Below, in pieces: positions 1,160 to 30,115 of a DNA stretch of 64,000 nt. The DNA comes from Candidatus Dojkabacteria bacterium (GTDB lineage: Bacteria > Patescibacteriota > Dojkabacteria > GCA-002793355). The DNA lies in NCBI GenBank assembly GCA_030583825.1, contig CP129477.1, forward strand, positions 622,491 to 686,490. Reading direction: 5' to 3'. The position numbers and the translations under genes were made by a program. The first letter of the stretch is position 1; every line of letters begins with the position of its first letter. The notes beneath the pieces are model-generated. The model saw only the letters and a program-made list of their open reading frames with translations, had not been told where the DNA came from and did no database searches.

Positions 1160-4100
1160 ATGTCTTTACTGCTCAAAACAATACATACGCTATATGCCCT
1201 TTTAGTGGCATTCTTTGTAGCATTTGTAGGAGGATTTATCCTCCTTTTTCCGCAGGTTCATTCTCCTGCAAAAATAACTCAAACATGTGTACTTCCTGAA
1301 ACTATTCACGGTAATGTTGAAATTGTTTCAAGTTCAATTGAAACAGCAATTGATTGTCGTCGCCAAGATGTTATTGTCGCTGAAAATGGTAAGCTCACAT
1401 TTATTGGTGCTACAGGCGAGACAGCATCGCCGGAAGTCCGTGTAAGATCATTAACAGTTGCAAATGGTGGAAAAGTAGATGTCGTGGCTATTCAGAATGC
1501 AGTCACTCCAACAATTCTCTTTGCCGGAACAGTATCAATGCAGGATCAGACTGTTAGTAATTCTGCAAAAGTATCTCAGGAAGGCAATTTAGTTGCATTT
1601 AATGCTCAAGTTTTAAGCGTGAATACAAATGAAGAACAACCTTCAGATAGCTCATATATTCAGCTTTCTAATGCATACCAATCTCCAGAAGTTCTTGGAG
1701 AGTCTGTAAATCAGGTGGTAGAGAAGGTGTTCAATGGTTTTTCACTGGAAGAGTTTGTCGCCTCAGCATTGCAGTGCTCACAAGTTTCAGCGATTGAAAG
1801 AGAAAATAATGACAATTGCTATTCTAATAATAGCCAATTGATTGCATCTACAGACAATCCAACATCTTTGACTGTTGCTGCTATTAGCCAAGAAGCACAA
1901 ACATTCTCACGTGTGGCATCAAATAGAGATATTGCGGCGGATGTGCTTGGTGCAAGTGGAAAAATAGTGAATCTGGGCGGAGTTGTAAACCAAAGCGGAC
2001 AGGTAACTCTGAGGGCTGAGGTAACACCACAATTTTATTTTGAAGCTCCAAAGCATATTCAGTTGGAGTTTGAAGTTAAGACGGTGCAAGACGCATTTGA
2101 CGGAACGACCGGAATGTTTTTGTCCGAGCCGGTATTTACAAATGGAACAGACCCCGTCAGTGTTAGTACGACAATAGATTATCTTCCGCAAAATCAGTCG
2201 TTTAAGTGGAGAGTGCGTGTTGTGGAAGTTGCCACCGGTGATAGAGGAGAATGGGTATCATTTGGAGAGAATGGTGAAGAAGAAGCAGACTTTGTTGTTT
2301 CATCTGCAAGCGCACTTAGGCTCGAAGCAGAAAGATATTCATTAGGAACAGAAGATAAAATCACCATTACGGTTACAGCTCTTAATGAAAATGGCCAGCC
2401 TGACGTAGATTACGGAGGTGTTATTCGCTTTAGAAGCGATAGTACTTCTGCAGATTTACCAAAAACATATCGCTTCACCAAAGCAGACAAAGGAACAAAG
2501 GCATTTACAGCGAGTGTGAAGTTTTATGAGCCAGGAGTTCGTTATATTACTGCATTTGACGCTGTAAATAGTTCACTAACAAGTACAGCAGCATTTACTG
2601 TAACACAAAGAGAAACTGAATATTTTGTACTGACAGCAAATAACTATTCACTTTACCGTGGAGAAAGAGCAACTATGATGTGGTCAAGTCGCGGTATGAC
2701 ACAAATTTTGTTACCAAATGGTGAATCAAGCGACCTGGCTGCGGGAACATTCGAAGTAACTCCATCAGAGGATGAGTATGTTTCAGTAAGGGCGATGACT
2801 CCAGAAGGGGTGACTGTATATGCAGGTGCAAATATTACAGTGAATAATGCAGATGTAGATCCACTTACTCGTGAAGATATTGATCCTGCACTGGAAAGAC
2901 AGCGTCGTATAAATCGAATTGCTACACCTGAAGTACAAGGAGTAAATACGGTCGGCGGAATTGCAAGTGAGCTTTTCCCAGACTATCTCCCGGAAGTTTT
3001 TAATGAAAATACAGAAATTCAGACGATTGATGAACCAAAGGTTTGCCCAACAATTGAATATTTCTCATATGACAAGCCATTTATTAAGGGTGGCACAATA
3101 GTTCACTTCTCGTGGAAAGTGAAAGATGCAGAACAGGTTGTTATTGACGCAATTCCGGGAAATCTTTCGTTACAGGGGCATGCCGCAATGTCAGCAGATG
3201 AAACATCTACAATTACCTTAAAGGCGATTGCAGGAACTTGCCATAGGACAATGAGCCTTCCAATTACTGTTGTCAGCGTGTATCCATGGGAAGCAACAGG
3301 TGCCTGGATTATCGGCATTATTTCTCTTGAAACACTTGGTCTTGTATTAGTTCCACTCGCAGCGCCAGGAGTGAAGTTTAATCTCTTCTTTGGTCTTGCA
3401 TCCGTGGTTGATCGTCTTATGAAACGCCGAAAGTGGGGAGTTATTTTCGATACAAACACAAGAAAACCAATTGCAGGAGTAAAAGTTTCAGTCTATTCGC
3501 CTGATAAGAAAATTCTTTATGATTATGCAATGTCAGATAATTACGGAGGAATCTACCTAAAGAACGTTGCTCCGGGCAAATATCGAATCGAGCTTGAAAA
3601 AGTGGGGTACACTCTCGGTTTAGGTAAAGTATCTAAAAAGAGCGGAAAATCTCGCAAAGTTACAGGAGAAAAATACTTTAATGCTATTACGTCTTCGTTA
3701 GTAACAGTGACAAAAGATGGCCTTGCGCAGCAATACAACTTCCCAATGACGGAGAATAAAAAAGAAACAAAGAAATTGATGTATCATGTCATGTTGCTCT
3801 TAGAGGAGCTTGCAACTGTCTCGTTGCCACTTTTCACAATTATAGGAGGAGCATATGCGGTTGCAATCACGCTATTATATCCGGTTACCATGAATTTGAT
3901 GCTTTTGACGATGTATCTGCTTATTGTTCTGGCAAAAATGCTTAACTATTTATTCACTCGGTATACAGTTGGACAGGTAAGAACAGTCACGGGAATCCCA
4001 GTCGCAAACGTTCAAATTGCCTTGTATGATCGCAAAAGTGAGACACTTATTGCTCGCACAACAACAGATAAGTCTGGAAGGTACGTGTTTTTTGCCGCAA

Positions 4101-4255
4101 AGGGTGACTATAATATCGCAGTTGTGGACTCAAACTATAGATTAGTAAATAAAGGCCGTTCAAAACTCGGAATTACCGTTACAAATAAAGAGCAGACTGA
4201 AGATCAAATTTCTGTAGGCAAGAATATTACAGTGTATCCTGCGATGCCTTTGTAG
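1160..4255 (+). CDS. Giant membrane-anchored surface protein (paralog 1 of 3); Ig-like repeats, conserved C-terminal module, two carboxypeptidase-regulatory-like (CarbopepD_reg) domains separated by TM helices
   Basis: 1031-aa ORF with an N-terminal TM/signal segment (LYALLVAFFVAFVGGFILLF) and a long extracellular region. The C-terminus carries the motif KRRKWGVIFDTNTRKPIAGVKVSVYS...GKYRIELEKVGYT, then hydrophobic helices, then a second similar domain GQVRTVTGIPVANVQIALYD...SGRYVFF...GDYNIAVVD. Confidence 0.75.
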   Translation: MSLLLKTIHTLYALLVAFFVAFVGGFILLFPQVHSPAKITQTCVLPETIHGNVEIVSSSIETAIDCRRQDVIVAENGKLTFIGATGETASPEVRVRSLTVANGGKVDVVAIQNAVTPTILFAGTVSMQDQTVSNSAKVSQEGNLVAFNAQVLSVNTNEEQPSDSSYIQLSNAYQSPEVLGESVNQVVEKVFNGFSLEEFVASALQCSQVSAIERENNDNCYSNNSQLIASTDNPTSLTVAAISQEAQTFSRVASNRDIAADVLGASGKIVNLGGVVNQSGQVTLRAEVTPQFYFEAPKHIQLEFEVKTVQDAFDGTTGMFLSEPVFTNGTDPVSVSTTIDYLPQNQSFKWRVRVVEVATGDRGEWVSFGENGEEEADFVVSSASALRLEAERYSLGTEDKITITVTALNENGQPDVDYGGVIRFRSDSTSADLPKTYRFTKADKGTKAFTASVKFYEPGVRYITAFDAVNSSLTSTAAFTVTQRETEYFVLTANNYSLYRGERATMMWSSRGMTQILLPNGESSDLAAGTFEVTPSEDEYVSVRAMTPEGVTVYAGANITVNNADVDPLTREDIDPALERQRRINRIATPEVQGVNTVGGIASELFPDYLPEVFNENTEIQTIDEPKVCPTIEYFSYDKPFIKGGTIVHFSWKVKDAEQVVIDAIPGNLSLQGHAAMSADETSTITLKAIAGTCHRTMSLPITVVSVYPWEATGAWIIGIISLETLGLVLVPLAAPGVKFNLFFGLASVVDRLMKRRKWGVIFDTNTRKPIAGVKVSVYSPDKKILYDYAMSDNYGGIYLKNVAPGKYRIELEKVGYTLGLGKVSKKSGKSRKVTGEKYFNAITSSLVTVTKDGLAQQYNFPMTENKKETKKLMYHVMLLLEELATVSLPLFTIIGGAYAVAITLLYPVTMNLMLLTMYLLIVLAKMLNYLFTRYTVGQVRTVTGIPVANVQIALYDRKSETLIARTTTDKSGRYVFFAAKGDYNIAVVDSNYRLVNKGRSKLGITVTNKEQTEDQISVGKNITVYPAMPL

Positions 4256-4363
4256 GCTCTATTGAGGTTTCCTTTACACTTTTTCCTGTGTCGCTTTAGT
4301 GATATAATTCGTGTATTGCAATTTCATGATGTTTTGAGCTTTGGATGCTGAATTGCATGACAT

Positions 4364-4435
4364 GGATCGTTAGCTCAGTGGTAGAGCAGTCGGCTCTTAA
4401 CCGATCGGTCGGGGGTTCGAGTCCCTCACGATCCA
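4364..4435 (+). tRNA. tRNA-Lys (anticodon CTT); CCA not encoded
   Basis: Manual cloverleaf: acceptor GGATCGT/ACGATCC, D-arm GCTC-AGTGGTA-GAGC, anticodon stem GTCGG/CCGAT with loop CTCTTAA (anticodon CTT), T-arm GGGGG-TTCGAGT-CCCTC, discriminator A. It is followed by a terminator hairpin and a T-run. Confidence 0.85.
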
Positions 4436-4790
4436 AAGGTGAATTTTCTCTATGGAATAGAGAGGGTTCACCTTTTTTGTTTAATAAAGGGACTCGAAGC
4501 TGAATGAGAAATAGCAGCTGCTCCTGCTATTTCGAGTGAAGAAGGGGTCGAGGAGTATACCTTGGTATTTCAATATAATACGAGGTGACCGAGTCCCTCA
4601 CGATCCAAAGTGGAGTTTTTCCTACGAAGTAGGAGGAGCTCCACTTTTTGTATTGTATGAGAACCCCGTAATAATTGACGGTTCGACTTGAGTGAAACGA
4701 AAGAGCCGGAGGCGGGGATCCCTCACGATCCAAAGGTGAATTTTCTCTATGGAATAGAGAGGGTTCACCTTTTTTGTTTAAATCGGGGCT
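4419..4790 (+). repeat. Three direct copies of the tRNA-Lys 3' end (approx. CGAGTCCCTCACGATCCAAAG) each followed by a terminator-like hairpin; copies at about 4419-4483, 4591-4650 and 4714-4783
   Basis: Copies 1 and 3 are nearly identical for ~90 nt, including the post-hairpin TTTTTTGTTTAA..GGGaCTCGAA. Copy 2 keeps the 18-nt tRNA 3' end but has a different hairpin (GTGGAGTTTTTCCTACGAAGTAGGAGGAGCTCCAC) that preserves pairing. Confidence 0.8.
4438..4480 (+). terminator. Intrinsic terminator after tRNA-Lys
   Basis: Hairpin GGTGAATTTTCTCTATGGAATAGAGAGGGTTCACC followed by TTTTTTGTTT. Confidence 0.7.
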
Positions 4791-4881
4791 CGAAACTCGA
4801 GCAAGATCGCATTCTCATAAAAGTTGCATTTATACATAGTTCTGGTAGGCTAATTTATATAGATAACCGAAGAATTCTGCT

Positions 4882-7800
4882 ATGTTAAGGCATCGTATGG
4901 CTAAATTATTTCCACTGCTTGCTATTTCCGGATTTATCGTATTATCTACATTCTTTTTGTACCATCTCAGCCTTTCTCTTACTGAGCGAAACTTTTTTAC
5001 TCAAGGCGAAGTTCTAGGCCTGGGAACACAGAAATCACCAATTTTACAATCTCTTCGTTCTCTTGACCCAACATCAGAATTATTTAGAACACGTCTTGCG
5101 GCTGATGATTCTTATTACACACTGACAAAAAATGAGAATGATATGGACGTGGATATGACTGCAGGCGTTGATAATATCGCGCTTATTGGAGGGGAAGATA
5201 TATACGTACTTTCTCGGTACGAAGCAAATGGCTCGTATGATTGGTCTCTTGCTTTTTCAGATGCCGGTAGCGATCGCAGGATTCGTGATATGGAAATCGC
5301 TTCGGATGGTGCAATTGTTCTCGTCGGAGATTTTAGTACTACATTCGATTTTGATCCTACGGCAGGAACTGATTCAATTGCTCCCATTAGCTTACGGGAT
5401 GCGTTTTTTACGAAAATCAATTCTGATGGTACGTACGCATGGACAAAATCAATAGGATCATCTAATCCTTCATTAAGCGTCGAAAGTGAAAATATCGCAG
5501 TTGATTCCACTGGAGGAATTTACATTTCTGGAATGCTTGGTGGAACAGTAGATTTCGATCCCGGCCCAGGGGTTGCAGATAAAGATGGCCCAGGCAATTA
5601 TCTTTTAAAGTTAGATTTGGCAGGTGATTTTGAATGGGTAAGAGTGATAGAAATGGCAATTGATTCCATTGCTGTAAACAATGCAACTGGTGCGGTATAT
5701 GTTGATGGCTCATTTTGGGGAACAGATATTGAGTTCAATGACTCAGGGGTAGGCTCAGATACTCATACAGCAACAGGTGTTAATGTAGATGATGTTTTAG
5801 TTCAATATCGAACGAATGGTGACTATGGTTGGTCGAGAGTAATTGAATCAGACGGAGGATTGTCTAACTCTGCATATGAATTTGTTAACGTTTCTCCGTT
5901 TAATGATCAGGTATATTGGGGGAACTTCTTGTCTGACTCAAGTATTGATGCTGATGGAACAGTAGGTGTAGATACAATAAACAAAGTTAACACCGATCCC
6001 GCAGATAGCGATTTTGTTCTCATTAGATATGAAGATAATGGTGATTATGTAGGAGGAAGAACAATTACTGGAGACCAGTACAGTATTGACATTGCAGATA
6101 TGGTATTTGGCCCAACAGGCGAAATATATATTGCAGGCTCTATTTATCCATACGACACATCTCCTATTGATTTAGATTATACAGAAGGTGTTTTTATGTA
6201 TACTCCAGCCTCGGATTGGGGAGGAGGGTATATTATGAAAATGGAAGAGGATACTGATTTTGTATGGATATATCCGACATATGATCCGACCGAAAATTAC
6301 GGAACATATCTATATAACATTAACCGTACAAGTGCTGGACTTCTGATGGTTTCAGGTGTGTACGGTGGGTTAATTGATATGAACCCTTCACAGCATACGG
6401 TGACTAATCTTCCATTTATTGATGGCGGTGACTACGGTGGTTTTATTGCATTCTATACAGACGGCTTCATGACTTACATTGCAAACCTCGACCCTTCATT
6501 AAGAGTGGTTGATCAGGGAACCAGTTTTGATGCAGAAATCGCTTCGGAAATATTTATGTCTGGAACGAGGACGGTAAGGCTAAGAGAAGATTCTACGAAC
6601 CTGCTCCTTGCAGATGCTTTTACTCAAATGAATGAAATTCGCGATTGGGCGACTGTCCAAGGAGAAACTGATCTTGCACTAGAAAAAACATATGTGGGAT
6701 CGCTTCAGGGAAATGACGGAGTTTCAGGCAACATTGATATTTATGTACCTATAGACGATCTGAATGATAACTCTGTTGTTGTTTGCCCACTAGCAGTGTC
6801 CATTGTTGAAGTTGCCACAAACTGTCCCTCTGCTATTATTCTTGCTGAAAATGCACCGAGTGTTTCTAAAGTGAATATTGCAAGCCAGGATTACTGGAAA
6901 GTAACAGGATTAACTAATGGTGGTGTAATCTCTCATACGGTTGTTATCACGCCAACTCCAAGCTCCTCGCCAACGGTTTCGCCAAGTCCTACCGTGACCC
7001 CAACAAGTACGCCAACTTCTACGCCCACACCGACTCCAACCGCAACAGAAACTCCAACGCCTACCATTACGCCAACTTTGACTATAACACCAACAAATAC
7101 TCTTGCGATAACTCCGTCGCCAACCCAGTCATTTACTTCGGGCGACACAAATGTGTCGTGTCCTACAATTACAACCTTTTCTGCTAACAAAACTGTTATC
7201 ACTCCAGGTACAGCAGTCTCATTTGCATGGAGTGTTTCGAATACCGACCATGTGGATATTATTCCTTACATAAATAATGCGCCATTCTCCGGTAATAGAA
7301 TAGAAACAATTTCGCTTGATCAACAAATTACTCTTGTTGCAACAAAAGGGGATTGTGTCAGAGAAAAAACAATCACTATTATGACTCAACCAGTTGCGCC
7401 GGAAACGATTACCTCAGGATTAGTACTCGGTTTTGCTGCTGTAGAAATTGCAACAGTCGCTGTTTCTTCTGTTGTCGCACCGGTTGTAAGCTCAAGTCAC
7501 AACATGTTTTCATTTGGATTCGCAATGATAGACAGACTTCGCAGACGTTACCCATGGGGAGTTGTCTACGACTCAAAAACGAAAAAACCTCTGGGTAGAG
7601 CAATTATTAGAGCAACAAATACCCAAACAAAACAAGTTATTACCAGCGTGACCGATGCCCTCGGCGTATTCCGAATTTTCTTAAAGCAGGGAACGTACAC
7701 AATTTCGGTTACAAAAACTGACTATGAATTTCCATCGAAACTGATTACAACAACAGAAGATAAAGGATATATGAATGTGTACCACGGCGAGGAATTTACT

Positions 7801-8337
7801 GTTCACACAGACGGAGAGTTAGTAATGAAAAGTTTTCCGATGGATCCTGCAGGAGAGACAAAAGTCTCATCACTTTTGAACCTCTGGATCAGTATCAGCC
7901 CGTACTTGGAATATCTTAACTCGTTTGTGCTGTTTGTTGGTATTGGGTTAAGCTTATATACCGTAGTTGTAAACCCAACATTATCAAACTTCCTACTAAT
8001 CGCATTTTACTTGGGTCTTGCTATTACAAAGCTTCTTCTGTTGCAAGTTCCAACCGCGGGAACGGTGAAAGACAGCCAAGGCAATCCTGTCAGAGGAATG
8101 GAAATTGGACTATTCGATGGTGAATTTAAAAACCTCGTTGCAACAACGTTTACTGACGATAAAGGTCAGTTCTCTTTCTACGCCAAAAATGACGACTACA
8201 CCATAAAAGTACTCGATTCCAAATATGAAATGGTAACTGAGAATATCATGGAAGGTATCAGAATACCTAAAGAAGGCGGAAACAATGGCGGAAGAGTAAT
8301 TATGACCGACTTAAAAGTGCGACAAAAAGCCTCATAA
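4882..8337 (+). CDS. Giant surface protein (paralog 2 of 3); SBBP-type beta-propeller repeats, PT-rich linker, conserved C-terminal module, two CarbopepD_reg-like domains flanking a TM hairpin
   Basis: 1151 aa with an N-terminal TM/signal segment. Repeats of the form DFDPTAGTDS...DAFFTKINSDGTYAWTKSIGSS resemble SBBP beta-propeller repeats. A TPTPTSTPTPTPT linker is followed by SFTSGDTNVSCPTITTFSANKTVITPG..., then RRRYPWGVVYDSKTKKPLGRAIIRATN, TM helices, and GTVKDSQGNPVRGMEIGLFD...GQFSFYAKNDDYTIKV. Confidence 0.75.
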   Translation: MLRHRMAKLFPLLAISGFIVLSTFFLYHLSLSLTERNFFTQGEVLGLGTQKSPILQSLRSLDPTSELFRTRLAADDSYYTLTKNENDMDVDMTAGVDNIALIGGEDIYVLSRYEANGSYDWSLAFSDAGSDRRIRDMEIASDGAIVLVGDFSTTFDFDPTAGTDSIAPISLRDAFFTKINSDGTYAWTKSIGSSNPSLSVESENIAVDSTGGIYISGMLGGTVDFDPGPGVADKDGPGNYLLKLDLAGDFEWVRVIEMAIDSIAVNNATGAVYVDGSFWGTDIEFNDSGVGSDTHTATGVNVDDVLVQYRTNGDYGWSRVIESDGGLSNSAYEFVNVSPFNDQVYWGNFLSDSSIDADGTVGVDTINKVNTDPADSDFVLIRYEDNGDYVGGRTITGDQYSIDIADMVFGPTGEIYIAGSIYPYDTSPIDLDYTEGVFMYTPASDWGGGYIMKMEEDTDFVWIYPTYDPTENYGTYLYNINRTSAGLLMVSGVYGGLIDMNPSQHTVTNLPFIDGGDYGGFIAFYTDGFMTYIANLDPSLRVVDQGTSFDAEIASEIFMSGTRTVRLREDSTNLLLADAFTQMNEIRDWATVQGETDLALEKTYVGSLQGNDGVSGNIDIYVPIDDLNDNSVVVCPLAVSIVEVATNCPSAIILAENAPSVSKVNIASQDYWKVTGLTNGGVISHTVVITPTPSSSPTVSPSPTVTPTSTPTSTPTPTPTATETPTPTITPTLTITPTNTLAITPSPTQSFTSGDTNVSCPTITTFSANKTVITPGTAVSFAWSVSNTDHVDIIPYINNAPFSGNRIETISLDQQITLVATKGDCVREKTITIMTQPVAPETITSGLVLGFAAVEIATVAVSSVVAPVVSSSHNMFSFGFAMIDRLRRRYPWGVVYDSKTKKPLGRAIIRATNTQTKQVITSVTDALGVFRIFLKQGTYTISVTKTDYEFPSKLITTTEDKGYMNVYHGEEFTVHTDGELVMKSFPMDPAGETKVSSLLNLWISISPYLEYLNSFVLFVGIGLSLYTVVVNPTLSNFLLIAFYLGLAITKLLLLQVPTAGTVKDSQGNPVRGMEIGLFDGEFKNLVATTFTDDKGQFSFYAKNDDYTIKVLDSKYEMVTENIMEGIRIPKEGGNNGGRVIMTDLKVRQKAS

Positions 8338-8444
8338 TGCTTTTGAGGAGCTTGATCACAATGTGTTGAAGTTTCCCTGAAATTTCCAAAAGAGGGGAGT
8401 GATATTCCTGTCATAAAAAATGTAGTACACTGTCAGTAAACTAT

Positions 8445-10757
8445 ATGATAGTGAATCACATCTATACTACACACTTTAGAAATATCCTTTTTGGGCTAGT
8501 TACTCTTGCACTCTTTCTAGTCATTCCACTTGCGACAGTAAAACTATGGGAAGCAACGCTTGATTATTCAGGGTCTCGGGCAGAAGTGCTTAGTGCAGAA
8601 ACTGCGTCAGTAATGTATGGGTTTGGAGATAATGGTAATGGCTCAACCGGTTTAGGTCTTGATACTGGGGATACACTTATTCCTACCCATATTGGTACAG
8701 ACGACGATTGGGTAATGATTGATATAGGAACAACTCACACAATAGCACTAAAAGAAGATGGGACAATGTGGAGCTTTGGCCCCAATACAAACGGAAAAAC
8801 TGGCCAAGGAACAGATACCGGAAGCATATTGGTACCGACTCAGATCGGTTCAGATACAGATTGGATGGCAGTTTCTGCAGGAAGCAACCATTCATTAGCA
8901 TTAAAAGAAGACGGTACGCTCTGGAGTTTTGGAACGAATGGAAGTGGAGCAACAGGATTAGGGACAGGAGTTGGAACCACATTAGTACCAACGCAAGTAG
9001 GAAGTGCCGATGACTGGGCATTTATTTCTGCGGGGAATGGATACTCTCTCGTTATTAAAGAAAATGGTACGTTGTGGGCCTTTGGTGCAAATACGAATGG
9101 AAAAACCGGACTGGGAACAGATTCTGGAAATAATACTACTCCGACACAAGTTGGTTCTGATGCAGATTGGACAGTAGTTTCCGCAGGAGTAAACGATCAC
9201 TCATTAGCTCTCAAAAGTGATGGAACGCTATGGGCTTTTGGTGGTAACAGCAATGCAAAAACAGGACTTGGAACTGCGTCAGGAAATACATTATCGCCAA
9301 CGCAGGTGGGGTCAGACGAAGACTGGACAACAATAACAACTGCTGCAAATCACTCACTTGCGCTAAAGGACGACGGCACGTTATGGAGCTTTGGATCAAA
9401 TAATAGTGGAAAAACGGGACATGGCGTAACATCTGGCGATACTCTTGTGCCGACACAAGTCGGCTCCGATACAGATTGGGCCGCCATTGCCGGAGGAAAC
9501 GGTCACTCGCTCGCAGTAAAAGAAAATGGCACATTGTGGAGTTTTGGACTTAACTCAGACGGAAGAACAGGGCAGGGAACGACAATAGGAATGTTATCGG
9601 TTCCAACCCAAGTGGGAACTGGTGAAAACTGGTTAGCGGTTGCGGCAGGCATAGGGCATTCTCTTGCGCTAAAAGCTCCTCCTGTGGAATATATTGTTCG
9701 ATATACTGCCGGAGGAAACGGCACTATCAGCGGAAGTGAACTTCAATATGTACCTCATGGATTAAATAGTACATCAGTAACAGCGGTTCCTGACGAAGGA
9801 TATCACTTCCTCAATTGGTCAGACGATAGTACAGACAACCCACGAGCCGATACAAATATCACTGATGACATGGAGGTAACGGCAAATTTCGAAGAAGATG
9901 AAGAACCGACACCAACCCCTACTCCAACACCTACCGTAAGTCCGTCTCCCACAGCTTCTCCAAGCCCAACTGCGACGCCTACCCCCACAAGTACCCCAAC
10001 ACCTACAGCTACAGTAACTCCTACTCCAACCTCCACGGTAACAGTGACTATTACACCAACTATCATTGGAACAGCTACCCCGACGCCAGTGATTTCTCCA
10101 ACTCAGTCGTTTACATCTGGAGATACAAATGTATCATGTCCGACAATTGTGGTATTTTCTGCAAATAAAACAGTAATTACCGCCGGAAGTGAAGTAACAT
10201 TCACATGGAATATTACAGGAGCCGAACATGTAGACGTTATGCCATATGTAAGTAATGCGGCACTTTCGGGCAGTAAAACAGAAATATTGACGACAGATCA
10301 GCGAGTAACCCTAGTTGCAACAAATGGAGATTGCTCTCGCGAGAAGTCACTAACAATTATGATGACCCCTATTTCTCTTGAAACTATCACTGGAGGGTTT
10401 GTTGCGGCATTTATTGCGATTGAAGCAGCTGTATTTGGCGCATCAACACTTATGCCGGGAGCGAGTATTGCTGCACAATCCAATATTTTCGGCTGGATTT
10501 TGTTAATGTTGAAGAAAAGTAAAAAGAGCTCCTCCGACCTAGAAAATGAGAAAGATTCAGTTACTATTGCTTCACCATCAGGACTTTCAAAAGCTATTCC
10601 ATATGTCGAGTACCTTAGCGCGTTCCTTCTCTTTGTCGGAATGGGATTAAGTCTTTACACTGTATTTGCTAACCCAATTTTAGGCAATTTCATTCTTGTG
10701 GGAATATATACTGCGCTTTCGGTAGGAAAAATTTTCGCAATGAGAAGCTCGGGGTAG
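8445..10757 (+). CDS. Giant surface protein (paralog 3 of 3); RCC1 (regulator of chromosome condensation) repeats, one Listeria-Bacteroides-type repeat, PT linker, conserved C-terminal module and TM hairpin
   Basis: At least seven RCC1-like repeats (GTLWSFGxNxxGxTGLGT...PTQVGSDxDW...SAGxxHSLALKEDG) and one YIVRYTAGGNGTISGSE...GYHFLNWSDD repeat. The C-terminus QSFTSGDTNVSCPTIVVFSANKTVITAGSEVTFTW...NGDCSREKSLTIMMTP and the TM hairpin IPYVEYLSAFLLFVGMGLSLYTVFANP are homologous to paralog 2. Confidence 0.75.
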   Translation: MIVNHIYTTHFRNILFGLVTLALFLVIPLATVKLWEATLDYSGSRAEVLSAETASVMYGFGDNGNGSTGLGLDTGDTLIPTHIGTDDDWVMIDIGTTHTIALKEDGTMWSFGPNTNGKTGQGTDTGSILVPTQIGSDTDWMAVSAGSNHSLALKEDGTLWSFGTNGSGATGLGTGVGTTLVPTQVGSADDWAFISAGNGYSLVIKENGTLWAFGANTNGKTGLGTDSGNNTTPTQVGSDADWTVVSAGVNDHSLALKSDGTLWAFGGNSNAKTGLGTASGNTLSPTQVGSDEDWTTITTAANHSLALKDDGTLWSFGSNNSGKTGHGVTSGDTLVPTQVGSDTDWAAIAGGNGHSLAVKENGTLWSFGLNSDGRTGQGTTIGMLSVPTQVGTGENWLAVAAGIGHSLALKAPPVEYIVRYTAGGNGTISGSELQYVPHGLNSTSVTAVPDEGYHFLNWSDDSTDNPRADTNITDDMEVTANFEEDEEPTPTPTPTPTVSPSPTASPSPTATPTPTSTPTPTATVTPTPTSTVTVTITPTIIGTATPTPVISPTQSFTSGDTNVSCPTIVVFSANKTVITAGSEVTFTWNITGAEHVDVMPYVSNAALSGSKTEILTTDQRVTLVATNGDCSREKSLTIMMTPISLETITGGFVAAFIAIEAAVFGASTLMPGASIAAQSNIFGWILLMLKKSKKSSSDLENEKDSVTIASPSGLSKAIPYVEYLSAFLLFVGMGLSLYTVFANPILGNFILVGIYTALSVGKIFAMRSSG

Positions 10758-11136
10758 CCTTGTTTTTCTAGCTTTTTATATGACTTTATTTCTTTATCTT
10801 TTCGACGTCATCTACTGTAATCCATGCTGCCATGCTCCGGCCTTGCAACTCAATAGCAAATCGTTGCTATTTTCTAACCTCCTTCACAAAAACATAACAT
10901 CGGTTATCTTTTTGTTCGGTTTCGTCAACTTATTAAATTTTCGCTGATGGGGTTTCCTCACTACGGTTCCGCCTTACGCATCAAATTACTTACTCAAAGA
11001 GTAAGGCTCACCAAATCCTGTCTTAGAAACGTAAAACGGTGCGATTTTCTGCACATTGGTCAGAAATAGTAACGAAACATATCTTCGACCTTGTACCTCT
11101 AAAAAGAAGGCATTTTGAGCCTCAGAAGGTACTCCT

Positions 11137-12231
11137 TTACTGTGCTAGATTCACAAAGTCCAAAAACGGATATCCACGTCGGGACATATTAAACCGCTGA
11201 TATAAGCAAGAAGCACGGTAAATTGCCAAGTTTACAGGCACATCAACCGGCGTAATATATTCAACCAACGTTGTTCCAAAACCCTTTTTCATAGTGTCAA
11301 TTGCAAGCCATGGGTGTGAAAGCTTTTTGTCATATACTTCCTGTGGAACAGATTCTCCCCACAAGTCGAGAGTAGCGTAGCCTTTGCCTTTTAAATATGA
11401 GATAAGTTCTGCAATCAAAAGCTCGTGGCTACCGACTTCCTGGCCTTTATCAGATGTTACTGTCCAGTAATACCACGCATTTGGCTTGTCTACAACGATA
11501 GCCGCTCCTGAAAACACAGTTCCCTGAGAGTCAGCCGCAAGTGCAATAAGCAGCTTTTTTGCTTTGAGATAAATCTCCAACTCCTGCTTCATATACTCCA
11601 ATGGAAGTTTGAATGTATCTGTTTTTGAAGTAACTTTTTTGTAAAGAACCATAAATGACTCAAATGCTGCAGGTTCCATTGAAAACGATACAGAAAGATC
11701 GTTCTCAGTTGCTTTTTGAATACGTTCTTTTGTCTGTTTTGTCATTTTTTTGTCAGAGTATGTTTCCAGCTCGACAATTCGAGTAACAGCGGCATCAACC
11801 TCTTGAACGGGAGCTTTTTTAAAGCCGGCTTTGTCGAGCATTTCGAGTATTGGCTGAGTTTCGATAATTCTTGGAGTGAAACGTGCATACACAGCATTTT
11901 CTTTTCGTCCTTGCTGATAAGCAAATGCGAAGAGTTCGTTCCAGAAAGTTTGATCTTGGGCAACTTCCGGCATTTCTAGCACTGGGCTATGCTGAAAGTA
12001 AATGAATGTTCCGCTTTTTGCTGGGACTTTTTGATATGACAATACTCCTACCTGTTTTCCATTCTTTTTAATGGAGAATGTTTTTAGGTTTCGTTTCTGT
12101 GAAGAAAGAAATTTAAGACGTTCCTCCTGGTTATAAAATGTGGCTGCGATGCCTTTCTTAATATTTGCGAGGTACGTTTTCTGGTCAGTTGGTAAAAAAG
12201 AAAAATTCTGCACTTCCATACTATTTAACAT
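11137..12231 (-). CDS. FemAB-family peptidoglycan interpeptide-bridge peptidyltransferase-like protein (aminoacyl-tRNA-dependent; GNAT-like fold)
   Basis: 364 aa. Length and overall pattern (tandem acyltransferase-like halves and a central helical region QTKERIQKATENDLSV) fit FemX/FemAB family proteins. The assignment is by resemblance only. Confidence 0.5.
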   Translation of the reverse strand: MLNSMEVQNFSFLPTDQKTYLANIKKGIAATFYNQEERLKFLSSQKRNLKTFSIKKNGKQVGVLSYQKVPAKSGTFIYFQHSPVLEMPEVAQDQTFWNELFAFAYQQGRKENAVYARFTPRIIETQPILEMLDKAGFKKAPVQEVDAAVTRIVELETYSDKKMTKQTKERIQKATENDLSVSFSMEPAAFESFMVLYKKVTSKTDTFKLPLEYMKQELEIYLKAKKLLIALAADSQGTVFSGAAIVVDKPNAWYYWTVTSDKGQEVGSHELLIAELISYLKGKGYATLDLWGESVPQEVYDKKLSHPWLAIDTMKKGFGTTLVEYITPVDVPVNLAIYRASCLYQRFNMSRRGYPFLDFVNLAQ

Positions 12232-12276
12232 TTAAGTAATCCACACACCTAATTTTAACATAATGTATAATGAAGT

Positions 12277-12954
12277 ATGAGTGAACAAAATGTCTTATTC
12301 AGTGAACAAAGAATCCCACTTGTCGGTAGTTATACTGAGGTTATGTCGCTTTTGCCGTACACAATAGAATATGCCATTGGAGCGAAGTTAACCTCGCCTT
12401 TTGAACGAATTGTTATTGCCATTGCCGGGGGTGCCGGAGCAGGGAAGTCCCACCTTGCGGATGATATTGCTGCAAAATTAAAAGAATATGAAGCGACAGT
12501 TATTTCCTTAGATAGGTTTTATAAAGACAATGTTTCGGAAGATAGCGTTCGTAACGAGCTTCCTGACGCAATTGATTTTGAATTTGCCAAAGAAGTATTG
12601 TCCCGAGTAAAAGATTATGCCGCTCAGACCGTAAGTGTTCCGGCATTTGATATGGCGAGCCGCAAGCGAATGAAAGATGAAATTATTCAATGCGGACGAG
12701 TAGTTATCCTAGAAGGAGCTTTCTTTTTGTATCCGGACTTTAACCATATCGTGAATATCAGTATTTTCATGGATGCCTTAGAGGCAGTTCGTTTCCAAAG
12801 GAGACTTGCTCGAGATGTCCAATTGAAAGGGAAGCAATATGCAATGATTCAACAGGAATGGAATACAACCACATTACCGGCATATTACAAATATATTGCT
12901 GTGCAAAGGAAGTTTGCGGATGTGATTGTTGTCAACAATGATGCGAAGCCGTAG
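12277..12954 (+). CDS. udk: Uridine kinase / phosphoribulokinase-family nucleoside kinase
   Basis: P-loop IAIAGGAGAGKSHLADDIAAKL, then VISLDRFYKD, VVILEGAFFLYPD and ...DVIVVNN, collinear with the Udk motifs (GIAGxSGSGKS..., DxYYKD, ILEG, DIIVP). Confidence 0.75.
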   Translation: MSEQNVLFSEQRIPLVGSYTEVMSLLPYTIEYAIGAKLTSPFERIVIAIAGGAGAGKSHLADDIAAKLKEYEATVISLDRFYKDNVSEDSVRNELPDAIDFEFAKEVLSRVKDYAAQTVSVPAFDMASRKRMKDEIIQCGRVVILEGAFFLYPDFNHIVNISIFMDALEAVRFQRRLARDVQLKGKQYAMIQQEWNTTTLPAYYKYIAVQRKFADVIVVNNDAKP

Positions 12955-20790: not shown

Positions 20791-21732
20791 ATGGATACAC
20801 CAACTATTCCTCAGGATTCTTCCTCTGTTTCTCCGGTTGCACCTGCTGCGCCATCACAAACACCAACTTCTCTAAAAACTAACCAAGACAAAACCAAGCT
20901 TTATTTGTTGATTTTTGGGTGTGTCGCTCTTTTATCAATTGCGATTGTTACGGCGGCAGTTATTCTCAGGCCACAGGGTGATAATGGAAACTCAGGATCA
21001 AACACTTCAAGTGAGAACAATACAAATCAAGCAGGAGAAAGTGGTCAGCAGGGAAATTCTGGAAACTCAGCTGAAGTAACTCCACGTCCAACACTCCCCG
21101 CAGGATGGTCTTTTACACAGCCACAAGGCTCACAATTGCATATTGCAACTCCTGTTTTATCAACTGATATCAAAAGAGTTGATGAATCTACCGGATACTA
21201 CAAATGGCAGGCACTTTTTGTTGAGAAATGGTGGATAAACCCAATTGACGTATTTTCTAAAAACACCGCAACGTATGTTATTGCATACCATAATTCAGCA
21301 AATGGGGAGGAAAATAGGTGGGAACCAAATGAACTTGGATCGGGAGCTATGTACCACGATGGAGAAGGCTACTATATTTATTATACAAAAGATCCTGTTC
21401 CTGGACACACGCTTGATTCAATCTACGAAAAAATTAAAGCAGAATTTAGAACAAGTGGTGCACAGTATGAATTTACCAATAAAGGGAAAGAAACTATCTT
21501 TAATCGTGAAGGATTACGCATTCAAATCCGTGATACTGCTATTGAGCCTGAACCAACCGCTCACACTGTTTATTACTCTCTGGATGCTATTGTGTTGTAT
21601 TATCAAGATAGAATCTTCTTGGTCGAACCTAAAAGTGCAGATGTAGCAAAAAATTATCCTGGATTAACAATTATCCCTTCGGCGATATTTGAGCAAGTGA
21701 GGCAAATTAAAGAAGTTTCTTATTTTGAGTAA
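20791..21732 (+). CDS. Membrane-anchored hypothetical protein (low-complexity N-terminus, single TM, extracytoplasmic domain)
   Basis: 313-aa ORF with TM LYLLIFGCVALLSIAIVTAAVIL and an S/N/G-rich linker. Confidence 0.55.
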   Translation: MDTPTIPQDSSSVSPVAPAAPSQTPTSLKTNQDKTKLYLLIFGCVALLSIAIVTAAVILRPQGDNGNSGSNTSSENNTNQAGESGQQGNSGNSAEVTPRPTLPAGWSFTQPQGSQLHIATPVLSTDIKRVDESTGYYKWQALFVEKWWINPIDVFSKNTATYVIAYHNSANGEENRWEPNELGSGAMYHDGEGYYIYYTKDPVPGHTLDSIYEKIKAEFRTSGAQYEFTNKGKETIFNREGLRIQIRDTAIEPEPTAHTVYYSLDAIVLYYQDRIFLVEPKSADVAKNYPGLTIIPSAIFEQVRQIKEVSYFE

Positions 21733-24928: not shown

Positions 24929-27900
24929 ATGGAAAATAAAGGTTTTACTCATCTGCATCTACATACAGAGTATTCGATGCTCGATGGGCTTATAAAAATC
25001 AAAGAGTTAATGTCTCAGGTAAAAGAGTTGGGTATGGACGCTGTTGGCATTACCGACCATGGTGTTATGCACGGCGTTGTAGATTTTTATAAAGCGGCAA
25101 AAGATGCCGAAATCAAACCGATTATTGGAGTTGAAGCATATATCACAAAAGATCACCTCAAAAAAGAAGGGCGCCCTGCTAAGGGGGATGACGAAAAAGC
25201 CTACTTTCACCTCACACTTCTCGCTAAAAATTTACAAGGATACAAAAATCTTCTCAAGCTTGTTTCTATCGCAAATACAAGTGGTTATTACTACAAACCG
25301 AGAATTGATAGAGAATTATTAACGCAATACAAAGAAGGACTTATCGTGTTAAGTGGATGCTACGGGAGTGAATTTGTTCATACGCTGCGTCTCAATAAAA
25401 CTGATCCTGCACTCGCAGTAAAGCGTGGACTTGAACATGTCGCAGAATATACTGACCTTTTTGGAGATGATTACTACATCGAAATTCAGCGAGGTACAGC
25501 AGGCGAAGAAGAAAAAGTCCTTGAGCCATTGCTTCGTGAGGTTGCAAAACAGGCAAATAAAAAGCTTATTGCCACTGGCGATGTCCACTACATGTACAAA
25601 GAAGATGCGAAAATTCAGGATATTTATTGGGCAATCAACGAAGGACTGACTATTACTGACCCCAAACATAAGCCAATGTATACAGAAGAGCTGTATTTAA
25701 AAAGTCCTGATGAATTTTACAAACTGTTTAACGATATTCCAGAAGCGGTATTCAATACGAATGAAATAAAAGAAAAAGTCGAAAAATACAATATTTTCTT
25801 TGATCGAGTACAGCCCCATTATTTAGATGTTCCAGAAGGAATGACTGCCGGAGACCATATTCGTGATCTTGCGTTTGCTGGAGCAATGAAGCGTTACGGT
25901 GATATTACAGAAAAAACAAAAGAACGACTTAATTACGAACTGAGTGTTATCCACGACAAAGGCTATGATGATTATTTCCTTATTGTCGCGGACTATATTC
26001 GCTGGGCAAAAGAGCAGGGCATTATTGTTGGGCCAGGCCGTGGTTCAGGCGCAGGAAGTGTTGTTGCGTATGTACTTGGAATTACAGACATTGATCCATT
26101 TTGGTGGGGATTACAATTTGAGCGATTCTTAAACCCATACCGACCATCTCCTCCTGACTTCGATATTGACTTTCAAGATGATCGTCGCGACGAAGTTATT
26201 AGCTACATTGAGCAAAAATACGGGAAAGAAAATGTGACAGCAATTTGTGCAATTGGACGTTTGGAAGCAAAAGCTGCTATTCGAGATGTCTCGCGTGCAT
26301 TAGGAATTCCTCTTGATCTTGTTGATAAATTCGCAAAGATGATTCCGGTAAAGCGTGGAAAGCCTATGGATTTAGGAGAAGCTGTTGAAACCATTTCGGA
26401 AGTGTCAGACTTTGTGAATACTCATCCAGAATTTCAGAATGTTATTAAAGCAGTCTCTCGTATTAAAAAAGGGGCAAGGCATGTGTCGGTTCACGCATGT
26501 GGATACATTATTACACCGACCCCAGTGAGTGATTATGTTCCGCTACGAAGAGCCCCACAGGATGAAGACCTTGTTATTACGCAAATCCCAGGCTCAAAGA
26601 TTGAAGACGTTGGGTTAATGAAATACGACTTTCTTGGCTTGAGAACACTGACAATTTTGAAAAATGCAGAAAACGCAATTAAAGAGCAGCACGGCATTGA
26701 AACTGACTGGAATGAAATCGGTTTGGACGATGCAAAAACATATAAAATTTTCCAGAAAGGACTGACTGACAGTGTATTCCAGTTTGAATCTGGTGGAATG
26801 AAGAAATTCCTTATTGACTTGCATCCAGAGCGAATTGAAGACATCAACTTCATGGCCGCAGCATATCGTCCTGGGCCAATGGGCTATATTCCAAGCTATA
26901 TTGACCGAAAGTTTGGCCGTGAAAAAGTAAAATACCTCCACGAAGATCTAAAACCGATTCTTGAAGAAACAATGGGCTATGCCGTGTATCAAGAGCAAGT
27001 CATGCAGATTGCGGTAGATTTAGGAGGATATACAGTTGGACAAGCAGATCTCCTTCGTCGCGCAATGGGTAAAAAAGACAAACAGATTCTTGAAGGTGAA
27101 AAAGAAAAGCTGATTGAAGGTATGCTCGCTAGGGGATATAACCGTGAGCTGGGAGAAGAAGTATTCTCGTACATGCTTCCATTTGCTGACTATGGATTTA
27201 ATAAAGCTCACTCAGCTTGTTATGCCGTTATTGCGTATCGAACTGCATATTTGAAAGCACATCACCCTGTAGAATTTGTACTTGGAGTCATGCAGTCAGA
27301 CCTCGAGCGTATTCCAAAACTCGAAAAAGACCTCCAAATGGCACTTTCTATGCATATCAAAGTACTTCCTCCGTCAATTAACAAAAGTAATATGAAGTTT
27401 ACAATCGAAAAGCACGACGACTTCATGGAAGAGCACTGGTTAGATGACGATTTTGATAAAATTCTGGCGGAGAAAGAAGAAAAAGGTGAGTATCACCATC
27501 TTGGAACAATTTTATACGGTCTTGGTGGAATCAAAGGAACAAGCAAGAAGTCTCTGGAAGCAATTTTAGAAGAGCGCAATAAAAACGGAGCATTTAAACA
27601 TTTAGACGACTTACTTTCGCGTGTGAATATCGAGCAGGTGGATAAAAAGACACTCTTGCTTTTGGCACAATCTGGAGCATTCGAAGAGTTTGGAGAAAGA
27701 AACTCATTAATAGCTCTGATTCCGGTGCTATACGACCGCTATAAATCAGATAAAAAGAAAGAATCCGCTGAGCAAATTTCATTATTTGCCGCAACAACCA
27801 GTTCTCAGCAATTTGTACAGCAGACTCCACTTCCTCAAGTTGAGCCTGCTACTGTCCTGCAAATTCTGAACTGGGAGAAAGAAATGTTTGGAGTGTATCT

Positions 27901-28495
27901 TACAGACCATCCTCTTGCCCAAATTGGTGACTACTTTATGAACCAAGGCGCACTAAGCATTAAGCAGGCAAAAGAAGAGCTTCCAACTGAACAAATTCTT
28001 GTTGGTGCGCAAATTCAGCGAATGAAAAAGCTTAATACGAAAAATGGCGATCTTATGGCATTTGTAGACTTAGAAGATTCAACCGACACCGTCAGCGGTG
28101 TGCTGTTTCCAAAAGTGTATGAAGCATTTGCCAAATTACTGAATGAGTCTAATGCAACGGTTGGGATGCCATTTCTTTTTAAGGGCAAAATTGACCATAA
28201 ATTAGACAAATTCAGCTTCATAATCAATGACTTTGAGGTTATAGACTTTGAACGTGCAAAAAGTGGAAATAACGCAATTGAACATGTTGTACTCAAGCTA
28301 AAGAAAACACTTAAGAAAGAAGATCTTGATTCACTAAAAGTATTTCTGAAAGCTCATGAAGGTAAAACGAAACTCTCGTTTGATGTGCCAACTGGAAACA
28401 ATTACCGACGTGTTGCATATAGATCAGGACTGTTTTACACATTTGACTCGAAGAAGACGTTGTCGAAGTACGGTGAGGTTTTGGAAGGAAAGTAA
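24929..28495 (+). CDS. dnaE: DNA polymerase III alpha subunit
   Basis: PHP domain ([15 protein letters not shown]), polymerase core ([39 protein letters not shown]) and an OB-fold region; 1188 aa. Confidence 0.9.
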   Translation: [1188 protein letters not shown]

Positions 28496-28616
28496 CCTTT
28501 CATTGCGAGGGATTAACTATTTTGAGCAATAAGTGAGATTCTGCAATTACAGAGAGGGAAGCGAACGTTGTAAATTGGCAGTCATCGAAAGAAGAGTGAA
28601 AAATAGTGTGGACAGC

Positions 28617-28625
28617 TTATCCACA
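28617..28625 (+). promoter_or_regulatory. Consensus DnaA box TTATCCACA, with an adjacent imperfect inverted partner TGTGGACAG at 28607-28615, in the dnaE-dnaA spacer
   Basis: Perfect 9/9 match to the bacterial DnaA-box consensus 18 nt upstream of the dnaA start. Confidence 0.6.
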
Positions 28626-28642
28626 ATGTCTTACAATAGCTC

Positions 28643-30067
28643 ATGGCGGCGATTCAAACCATGTCAGATTCTGACTTACAAAGAATGTGGGAGCTTGCAA
28701 AAGTTTCTCTCGCGAAAAAGATTTCTCCAACTCATTTTAAAGCATGGATTGAACATAGTGCACGCCTTGCCGAAATTGACGAAATTAACAAAAAAGTTGT
28801 CATTGATGTAAAAAGCTCTGTCGCGCTTAATGCGATAGAGAAGTATGTAAAAGCATCACTTTCCGATATCTTTACTGACTTTTTGGGAGAGTCTCACGAG
28901 GCACTCTTTAGAGTGAAAGCAGCAAGTTTTCAGAATGCTCACTCTATGACAGCAGTTAAAAAAGTTCAGACTATGCCGGAAACTACGGGTTCACTTTTAG
29001 ATCCTGAAAATGCATATAACACACGTCTCAAGAAGGCAATTGATAATGCAGGTCTTAACGATAAGTACACATTTGAAACATTTGTTATTGGCGCAAATAA
29101 TCAGCTTGCACATGCCGCAGCAACAGCAGTGGCAGGAAGTTTGGGAACAGCGTACAACCCGCTGTTCATTTATGGAACGGTTGGTGTTGGTAAAACTCAC
29201 TTAATGCAGGCAGTTGCCCGACGAGCATTGGAAAAAGATCCAGACAGAAAAATCTTGTATGTCTCAAGCGAAACATTTTTAAATGCGATGGTTGACTCTA
29301 TTCGATCAAAGAAAACAGCAGAATTCCGTAACCAATATCGTAAGCTTGACTTGCTCATGATTGATGACATTCAGTTTATTTCGGACTGGGAAGCTGCCCA
29401 AAATGAACTTTTTCACACATTTAACGTGCTGTACGAAGCGGGAAAACAGATAATTCTTGCATCAGATAAACCTCCATCAGAAATTCGAAATCTGGCAGAT
29501 AGACTTCGTTCACGTTTTGAGGGAGGAATGGTCGCAGATGTAACAGCTCCTGACTACGAAACTCGTGTTGCAATTCTCACAAAGCATAATGAAGAGCAGC
29601 TTGATACTCGCCTTCCACAGGAAGCATTGGAAGTTATTGCGTCGTATGTTGAAAGCAATATTCGTCAGCTATTTGGGGCATATAATAAAGTTCACACATA
29701 TGCAAAAGTTACTAAAGCGCCAGTTGATCGTCTTATTGTTGAGAAGATTCTGGGCCATGAGCGGGAGCTTGCACGCAAAAAAGTAAAGGTTGAAGACATT
29801 CTCGACAAAGTGGGTGAAGAATTTGGAATCACAATCGGTCAATTAAAGTCTTCGACAAGGGCCGCATCTGTGGTACTTCCAAGACAAGTATGTATGTACC
29901 TTATTCGTGATATACTTCATTATCCACTTGAACGGGTTGCACGAAGCCTCAAGCGATCCGACCATACGACGGTACTTCATGCCGTAGATAAGGTCATCAA
30001 ATTGATGGAAAATGACCATCATTTGCGGGCGCAAGTCGTTGCAATCAAGCAGCAATTGCTTAAGTAA
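28643..30067 (+). CDS. dnaA: Chromosomal replication initiator DnaA
   Basis: AAA+ Walker A GTVGVGKTHLMQAVA, Walker B LLMIDDIQF, sensor/arginine-finger region, and the C-terminal DNA-binding helix-turn-helix (VCMYLIRDILHYPLERVARSLKRSDHTTVLHAVDKV). Confidence 0.9.
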   Translation: MAAIQTMSDSDLQRMWELAKVSLAKKISPTHFKAWIEHSARLAEIDEINKKVVIDVKSSVALNAIEKYVKASLSDIFTDFLGESHEALFRVKAASFQNAHSMTAVKKVQTMPETTGSLLDPENAYNTRLKKAIDNAGLNDKYTFETFVIGANNQLAHAAATAVAGSLGTAYNPLFIYGTVGVGKTHLMQAVARRALEKDPDRKILYVSSETFLNAMVDSIRSKKTAEFRNQYRKLDLLMIDDIQFISDWEAAQNELFHTFNVLYEAGKQIILASDKPPSEIRNLADRLRSRFEGGMVADVTAPDYETRVAILTKHNEEQLDTRLPQEALEVIASYVESNIRQLFGAYNKVHTYAKVTKAPVDRLIVEKILGHERELARKKVKVEDILDKVGEEFGITIGQLKSSTRAASVVLPRQVCMYLIRDILHYPLERVARSLKRSDHTTVLHAVDKVIKLMENDHHLRAQVVAIKQQLLK

Positions 30068-30115
30068 AGAGTTTCCAGTTCAAGGTTTCCGTTTCAGAGT
30101 GCATGTTTTGATAAG

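Follow-up and report, generated by a model that had tools for sequence, protein, structure and literature searches.

We analyzed a 64,000-nucleotide stretch of a genome of Candidatus Dojkabacteria (hereafter the window), in which the 3' end of the gene for tRNA-Lys(CTT) recurs directly downstream of the gene itself, so that three copies of this tail lie inside 370 nt, together with terminator-like hairpins and a folded spacer that we call element A. The tRNA-Lys(CTT) gene is the sole tRNA gene encoded in the window. It was found with the Infernal tRNA model (71.7 bits, E = 3e-15) and has no encoded CCA; a CCA-adding enzyme gene is located at 32028-33545 on the minus strand. ARAGORN placed the tRNA gene at 4363-4436, one base wider at each end than Infernal (4364-4435), and we adopted the Infernal register because it results in the standard U8 and a 7-bp acceptor stem. 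The locus contains the following features.

4300-4308, + strand: predicted extended -10 promoter-like box TGATATAAT, 5' of tRNA-Lys, read from the sequence and putatively a promoter
4364-4435, + strand: tRNA-Lys(CTT)
4418-4438, + strand: copy 1, the master copy within the gene, tRNA C56-A73 plus AAG, defined by sequence comparison
4435-4481, + strand: hairpin hp1 (stem-loop 4435-4475), terminator-like, a 19-bp stem that includes three U.G pairs, followed by a T run
4488-4598, + strand: element A, a conserved structured spacer (RNAalifold on a MAFFT alignment)
4590-4610, + strand: copy 2, 21 nt that repeat the tRNA 3' end with AAG exactly and are also the 3' end of element A
4607-4652, + strand: hairpin hp2 (stem-loop 4607-4647), terminator-like, with a different sequence and the pairing kept
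4653-4718, + strand: element B, a degenerate A-like spacer, which begins GAGAACCCCG.AA and includes GGTTCGACTTGAGTGAA
4719-4781, + strand: copy 3, the last 14 nt of the tRNA (4719-4732) with hairpin hp1' (4732-4772) and a T run
4782-4815, + strand: A', the truncated start of a further A-like unit (GGGGCTCGAAACTCGAGCAAG), read from the sequence
4824-4852, + strand: putative promoter TTGCAT-17 nt-TAGGCT of the downstream surface-protein gene (surface paralog 2), read from the sequence

An earlier note on this DNA, made from the sequence alone, had described the tail of tRNA-Lys with a hairpin as present three times, and this was borne out at 4418-4438, 4590-4610 and 4719-4732. Several of its details had to be revised. 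The last 18 nt of the gene, CGAGTCCCTCACGATCCA, stand at 4418-4435 and recur exactly at 4590-4607, one base to the left of where the note had put them, and the exact repeat extends to 21 nt. Copy 3, which had been credited with a tail of about 18 nt, does carry a tail copy, of which only the last 14 nt are kept; 5' of these it reads GGGGA where the tRNA has TTCGAG. The near-identity of copies 1 and 3 over about 90 nt had been overstated: the block 4719-4781 is 100% identical to 4422-4484 over 63 nt, after which the match drops abruptly, to 13 of 18 aligned positions on the right and then to about half, and the left flanks of the two blocks show no match at all. Copy 2 is as the note had it, an exact tRNA fragment followed by a hairpin of another sequence with preserved base-pairing (4607-4647), and across the equivalent 63 nt its identity amounts to 68%. 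Between neighbouring copies there are only 151 and 108 nt; a second figure for the spacing is 125-172 nt. The identity of the tail copies begins in the T loop at C56 and ends just past the end of the gene. Elsewhere in the 64 kb the 14-mer of the tRNA tail does not occur, even with up to two mismatches (0.19 sites expected), and the core of hp1 has two occurrences, against 0 expected. The three terminator-like hairpins of the + strand (4435-4475, 4607-4647 and 4732-4772), each predicted as a 19-bp stem followed by a T run, are among the 4 terminator-like sites that a scan of the region returned, against 1.2 expected.

Perfect identity of copies 1 and 3 across 63 nt is also what an assembly duplication would produce, in which case the triple repeat proposed in the earlier note would disappear. 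The Logan contigs L001 and L004, which come from independent samples and carry the same RecR, stop at window position 4451, and contig L026, present in 3 samples, begins at 4752. Assuming a 31-mer graph, we read these contig ends as assembly-graph breakpoints at both edges of the 63-nt repeat. At least five independent samples have such contig breaks, with two different flanks as for a genuine repeat. Because independent metagenome assemblies break exactly at the edges of the repeat, we regard it as real. The source record is apparently a 1.09-Mb contig, and a two-copy form was found in independently assembled relatives, which leaves an artefact with next to no credibility. The RecR of the window is 100% identical to WKZ29730.1 from a metagenome-assembled genome of Candidatus Dojkabacteria.

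We located the corresponding loci in related lineages through RecR homologues and the contigs that carry them. The single-gene RecR tree has the topology ((window, L027), ((L032, L041), (L031, L030))), (L036, L042). The lineages are listed with their RecR identities and with what follows the tRNA-Lys gene at its 3' end.

L027, L028 and L029 (RecR 93%): hairpin, spacer of about 110 nt, second tail copy and second hairpin; third copy absent
L031 (RecR 70%): the same spacer and second copy; hairpins absent
L032 (RecR 69%): spacer, second copy and a third fragment of 13 nt
L041, the sister of L032 (RecR 69%): spacer recognisable, fragments decayed
L030 (RecR 73%): degenerate form
L036 (RecR 65%): degenerate form, with AGGTGAC kept, then its own T-loop variant GATTCCCTCA
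L042 (RecR 69%): degenerate form

Element A and copy 2 are collinear in five lineages (window, L027/28/29, L031, L032 and L041) with RecR identities of 68-93%. Copy 3 is restricted to the lineage of the window and absent in L027-29, so that the number of tail copies ranges from 1 to 3 among lineages; the sharp left edge of the copies at C56 is the same in all of them. A single alignment of 74% identity between the window and L032 covers the tRNA, hp1, element A and copy 2, although the adjacent surface gene can no longer be aligned and the identity of recR is 67%. Element A itself is 75% identical between the window and L027 and 55-65% identical to the deeper lineages, with invariant junction motifs. 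A box of the form G/TGATATAAT or GGTATAAT occupies the position equivalent to the promoter-like box in L027, L031, L032, L036 and L042. No empty site was seen in close relatives, and the first spacer is present in five lineages. At the tRNA-Met gene of L027, the only other tRNA gene examined, we found no array of tail copies.

The copies follow the sequence of the tRNA gene. Within each of four genomes (window, L027, L031 and L032), copy 1 equals copy 2 at 21/21 positions; in the fifth lineage, L041, copy 2 has decayed. Between genomes the tail differs at G59A, T64G, G68A, G69A and position +3: the tail of the window has A69, and that of L031 has A59, G64, A68 and a T at +3. All five substitutions are mirrored in copy 2, with 0 unmirrored, and simple combinatorics gives about 3e-8 for the chance that the same sites and bases arose independently. 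The partial copy of L036 carries the T59 variant of L036 itself. The tRNAs of the sisters L032 and L041 differ at position 69, and so, in the same way, do their third fragments. Copy 2 thus does not behave like a displaced fragment that evolves neutrally after its insertion.

Between the tRNA gene and copy 2 lies element A, for which RNAalifold on a plain MAFFT alignment predicted four helices (P1-P4), with 9-11 pairs showing double changes.

4488-4498, + strand: m1 (AGGGACTCGAA), the 5' strand of P1, reverse complementary to T54-T64 of the tRNA and to C56'-T64' of copy 2
4490-4496 with 4591-4597: P1, in which GGGACTC of m1 pairs with GAGTCCC of copy 2
4509-4532: P2, a hairpin whose stem sequence varies among lineages
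4546-4550 with 4586-4590: P3, in which GGTCG pairs with TGACC
4555-4558 with 4578-4581: P4, a variable hairpin

P3 contains two double compensations in L032 and one conserved G.U pair. Between P3 and P4, AGGA and GAGG (4551-4554 and 4582-4585) form a symmetric 4x4 purine internal loop, which is unchanged in all five copies of element A, where the flanking stems vary, and which could be a protein-binding or tertiary-contact motif. The segment m1 has a predicted duplex energy of -22.2 kcal/mol with the real T arm (11 nt) and -17.8 kcal/mol with copy 2 (9 nt). In L031, m1 reads GGATTCGAA and matches the TTCGAATCC of the same genome, so that m1 has altered together with the tRNA. A covariance model built from four element-A sequences (R1) scored 124-144 bits in the window, L027-29, L031 and L032, and 88 bits in L041. 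Apart from one weak match, no further R1 match was found in 290 kb of the window and related-locus sequence. This weak match (15.5 bits, 4688-4737) lies in the area of element B, whose homology to element A was judged by eye; element B is 64% identical (58/91 positions) to the spacer directly 3' of the tRNA in L030. A' resembles m1 and the first junction, and of the two versions of element A, that of L032 is nearer to it than that of the window. With Rfam 15 at E <= 1, positions 3500-5500 returned only the tRNA and sub-threshold noise and no family for element A; ARAGORN did not recognise the element, and the literature provided precedents for partial-tRNA arrays and nothing resembling it. We rejected a hammerhead-like core (its CUGA is not conserved in L031), a small open reading frame within the element (frames not conserved), a promoter of its own (unsuitable spacing), a T-stem-like pairing of m2 with copy 2 (good in L031 only) and the idea that the 3' tail pairs with the junctions (not conserved).

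The array could also be a functionless slippage duplication of the tRNA tail and its trailer, homogenised by unequal exchange, whose apparent structure is that of hairpin-rich, AT-rich trailer DNA. The perfect 63-nt tract demonstrates homogenisation at work, the copy number varies with decayed units in L030, L036, L041 and L042, and Tandem Repeats Finder detected no regular tandem repeat, as expected of old, diverged units. The conservation of element A speaks against this explanation. The intergenic DNA 5' of the tRNA is unalignable between the window and L027 except for the promoter box, yet element A retains its 75% identity between the two. Double changes occur in 10/24 pairs, values that 0/500 shuffles reached, and 94% of the cells in the five-sequence alignment are paired, against 37-46% when the partners are slid, a control in which the pairing collapses. 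Folding z-scores range from -2.6 to -4.2 in the four intact copies; L041 has -1.6 and retains the compensatory pairs of P3 despite its decaying fragment. With ten compensatory pairs, a duplication devoid of function seems unlikely to us. Because element A is conserved and covarying, we take it to be a functional structured RNA, which would most simply be a structured trailer of the tRNA transcript. The conserved G.U pair of P3 and the three U.G pairs of hp1, the latter possible on the + strand alone, favour the + strand as the one that would be transcribed.

The geometry of the copies is that of integration by integrases at tRNA genes. The earlier note had recognised the att-like arrangement of duplicated tRNA 3' ends; their identity extends from C56 in the T loop to just past the end of the gene, and the left edge is the same everywhere. 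The note had also stated correctly that no integrase is present. None of the 41 window open reading frames (ORFs) tested contains a recombinase Pfam domain, and the housekeeping genes of the window include dnaA, dnaE, rho, cysS, the CCA-adding enzyme gene and ribosomal protein genes. At the locus itself, no integrase was found in eight related lineages, the loci covered being L027-L032, L036, L041 and L042; a XerC/D-like gene of L027 lies about 6.6 kb downstream of the tRNA. According to a scar explanation, tyrosine-integrase elements would have entered the T loop, each bringing a 3' end and a terminator, and their interiors would have been deleted later, or tiny integrase-less elements would have been mobilised in trans, leaving tandem attL/attR-like fragments. 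Besides the geometry, this is supported by the terminator-like hairpin of its own after every fragment, the variable cargo directly downstream, the recombination between fragments seen in L041, and the stacked partial tRNAs without a resident element known from the tycheposon islands of Prochlorococcus (bioRxiv 10.1101/2020.12.28.424599).

No element carrying the core came to light, and the note's idea of a core (attP) on phage or plasmid sequence was not supported by anything beyond chance in viral contigs, phage records or plasmid records. Phages of Patescibacteria are poorly sampled; in IMG/VR, the window core and the element-A pattern had 0 matches each; the cores of the relatives had 2, namely a phage tRNA-Tyr and a GC-rich coding region, which we discarded, and a looser scaffold pattern gave 16 matches, 0 of them confirmed by the covariance model. 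Phage and plasmid records searched with blastn contained no match to the core or element A. The 20 matches of the 18-mer in the genome collection belong to unrelated phyla, are about at chance level and include no relative; in metagenomes the 21-mer had no match. The copies are only 125-172 nt apart, the spacer has stayed conserved across deeply diverged lineages and shows compensatory changes, a distal fragment is lacking in the cargo, and a displaced fragment ought to drift, where copy 2 instead mirrors five tRNA substitutions. Repeated integration and excision, as proposed in the note, is at odds with copy 2, which like its spacer is collinear and conserved down to 68-69% RecR identity. The scar view gains partial support as an origin of the array; as an account of the present array, stacked scars keep a minor chance. 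The note had expected a scar explanation to weaken if relatives shared the array and no element with the core were found, which is largely the situation described here. Its second suggestion, that the tail and hairpin were recruited as a unit under structural selection, comes closer to the evidence; the hairpins are structurally conserved.

A different mobile origin would regard hp1 with element A (about 150 nt) as a non-autonomous selfish mini-element that homes into the T loop of tRNA-Lys, using m1 as a target guide or an integrase in trans, and regenerates a 21-23-nt duplication of host sequence at each insertion. The boundaries of the duplication are identical in every lineage, trailer bases included, with a length of 23 nt in L031 and 21 nt in three other lineages; 11 nt of the target are complementary to m1, which co-changes with the target in L031, and element A occurs at this single site only. 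Against it, each genome has a single copy, at a constant site, which diverges in step with the host. L032 and L041 share the element collinearly at about 80% identity, and it was therefore already present in their common ancestor. Neither a reverse transcriptase nor a transposase or integrase partner for element A was found among the window ORFs, and close relatives show no empty site. We consider such a mini-element quite improbable.

We favour, with a probability of about one half, an old array, inherited vertically behind tRNA-Lys(CTT) in a clade of Candidatus Dojkabacteria, that is prone to recombination, changes in step with the tRNA and bears a structured trailer RNA, which is probably functional. 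Its unit would comprise the last 14-21 nt of the tRNA gene, usually a terminator-like hairpin, and a spacer of about 110 nt. The first unit would hold the intact element A, the second hp2 and the degenerate spacer B, and the third the perfect copy of tail and hp1, followed by the truncated start of another A-like unit. Transcription from the tRNA promoter would yield element A as a 3' trailer, freed at its 5' side by 3' processing of the tRNA and ended at its 3' side by hp2. Concerted evolution would keep the tail copies identical to the tRNA, probably by slippage between the short direct repeats or by unequal exchange or gene conversion among them. Copy 3 looks like a recombination or conversion product, presumably a lineage-specific partial re-duplication, of which the 63-nt tract would be the visible outcome. 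In L041 (11512-11602, compared with 14224-14270 of L032), the tRNA runs into GAGTTTTTTC, which is homologous to the sequence after fragment 3 in L032, and the acceptor part of the second fragment of L041 shows 6 changes in 7 nt, many more than a background divergence of 20% would give. The 63-nt tract with its diverged flanks, the variable copy number and the rearrangement in L041 all indicate ongoing recombination among the fragments, which in turn makes concerted evolution explicable. An integrase event in the T loop may well have produced the first duplication; it is a reasonable origin because the identity block begins at C56 and stacked partial tRNAs are known at island tRNAs. The present array, however, is not a neutral scar.

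Several observations weigh against the concerted array with a functional trailer. Recombination between 21-nt repeats is inefficient, and exact identity with a uniform left edge at C56 is equally expected from repeated site-specific events. The covariation statistics are thin because there are only five copies of element A, one of them decaying; one pair count was taken from a model-fitted alignment, and the lone covariation in P1 could stem from conversion between inverted copies. The minus-strand fold is nearly as stable as that of the + strand (-18.2 against -20.7 kcal/mol, 2.5 worse). As for transcription, hp1 looks like a strong terminator separating the tRNA from element A and no separate promoter for element A is visible, so that its transcription would need read-through; L031 lacks hp1. 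Element A is decayed or lost in L030, L036, L042 and partly in L041, and any function must therefore be dispensable.

As to what a functional trailer might do, element A may be a new class of tRNA-linked RNA that combines an antisense sequence to the T arm of tRNA-Lys(CTT) with an exact decoy of the last 18 nt, and it could thereby alternate between a self-paired state and one paired to the body of the tRNA. In the lowest-energy fold predicted for the transcript from the tRNA to copy 2, m1 pairs with the real T arm, and the 5' acceptor strand of the tRNA pairs with copy 2. This alternative fold was predicted in the window (4364-4610), in L027 (13864-14104) and in L031 (5962-6172) and lies 5-11 kcal/mol below the tRNA and the trailer folded apart, by a nearest-neighbour prediction that ignores the tertiary structure of the tRNA. 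If it were a switch, element A could be either a cis-acting sensor or control of tRNA-Lys maturation, or the guide RNA of an element homing into the T loop. On these modelled folds we hold the switch to be a speculative proposal, doubtful as it stands.

The DNA downstream of the array differs between lineages. Surface paralog 2 is present in the window and L027-29 and absent in L031, L032, L036, L041 and L042, where the array is followed by the FemAB-like, PRK and PEGA genes found at 11.1-15 kb of the window. In L030 this spot is occupied by a large gene of an unrelated kind. The RCC1 gene is found in the window only, L028 having paralog 2 without it. The promoter-like site of paralog 2 has an equivalent in L027 (TTGCAT-17 nt-TACGCT). 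An exact look-up of surface paralog 2 found no record, and paralogs 1 and 2 share their C-terminal 380 aa only, at 31% identity. The suggestion of the earlier note that paralogs 2-3 arrived as an island is in line with this variability, but no distal tRNA fragment brackets the cargo: window positions 4800-12300 contain none above chance (best score 18 against 16-22 in shuffles), and none lies within 10 kb at any related locus.

Further observations concern the surroundings of the locus. The contigs L027 and L028 represent one species and share 99.8% identity along 16.4 kb; they diverge from about position 16416, inside the C-terminal part of paralog 2 (68%). Different genes follow paralog 2 in the two, which in L027 are PfkB, tRNA-Met and a XerC/D-like integrase. 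The FemAB-like/GNAT gene (window 11137-12231, minus strand) is a conserved neighbour of tRNA-Lys(CTT), with equivalents in L031, L032, L036, L041 and L042. The FemAB-like family includes aminoacyl-tRNA-dependent transferases, and the link to tRNA-Lys could be plain synteny. Genes for dnaE, dnaA and the CCA-adding enzyme lie close together at 24929-33545, and rnpA, yidC, ybaB and recR are found in L001 just upstream of the window start; the region 24929-33545 is probably near the replication origin. The five sizeable ORFs at 20791-21732, 33917-35725, 36687-38039, 38597-39388 and 62320-63075 had no Pfam match at E <= 1e-6.

Partial copies of tRNA genes have been described in several settings, and tRNA gene fragments have been reviewed (PMC9897764). 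Integrase islands have a restored tRNA gene and a displaced fragment, a rule described with the Islander database (PMC4383910). The locus resembles them in its direct repeat of the tRNA 3' end, from the T loop to the end of the gene, located downstream and beside variable DNA. Unlike such islands, it has no integrase, no island-sized DNA between its copies and no distal fragment; moreover, fragment and spacer are conserved deeply, and the tRNA and the fragment evolve together. Att-like partial tRNAs stacked at one tRNA gene, some without a resident element, and variable cargo downstream are also known from accretion arrays, cis-mobilizable elements and tycheposon islands in which partial tRNAs are scattered (PMC5704250; bioRxiv 10.1101/2020.12.28.424599). 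Such arrays extend over kilobases with integrase remnants, whereas here 370 nt hold three copies, with a spacer that is folded and conserved. Three units of hairpin and T run on the + strand within 340 nt are also reminiscent of tandem intrinsic terminators, which differ in lacking the copy of the tRNA tail before each hairpin and the conserved non-terminator structure between two of them.

At the RNA level, small RNAs are known to arise from the 3' external transcribed spacers (3'ETS) of tRNAs, e.g., 3'ETS-leuZ of E. coli. A functional RNA encoded in a trailer and freed by tRNA processing, which for element A is a proposal, is similar in principle; there is no similarity in sequence or structure, and element A holds part of the tRNA both as a copy and in antisense. 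The 7-bp closing helix of element A runs into a 5-bp helix, a 12-bp stack like the acceptor and T stems of the tRNA-like domain of tmRNA or of mascRNA, and its single-stranded 3' tail of tRNA-derived sequence is also found in tRNA-like structures. Unlike these, it lacks a T loop, a D arm and a CCA context.

Partial tRNA copies beside tRNA genes are routinely taken as integrase footprints and used for mapping islands. The present locus suggests that a duplicate of a tRNA tail can be kept, and perhaps used, rather than decaying. The tRNA-Lys(CTT) locus marks the edge of a variable region with large surface-protein genes. To our knowledge, the non-coding RNA repertoire of Patescibacteria has been little explored, and element A is a candidate for a new structured RNA in this group. 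Even if the array were only a homogenised remnant, the locus would still exemplify repeats as small as 21 nt evolving in concert.

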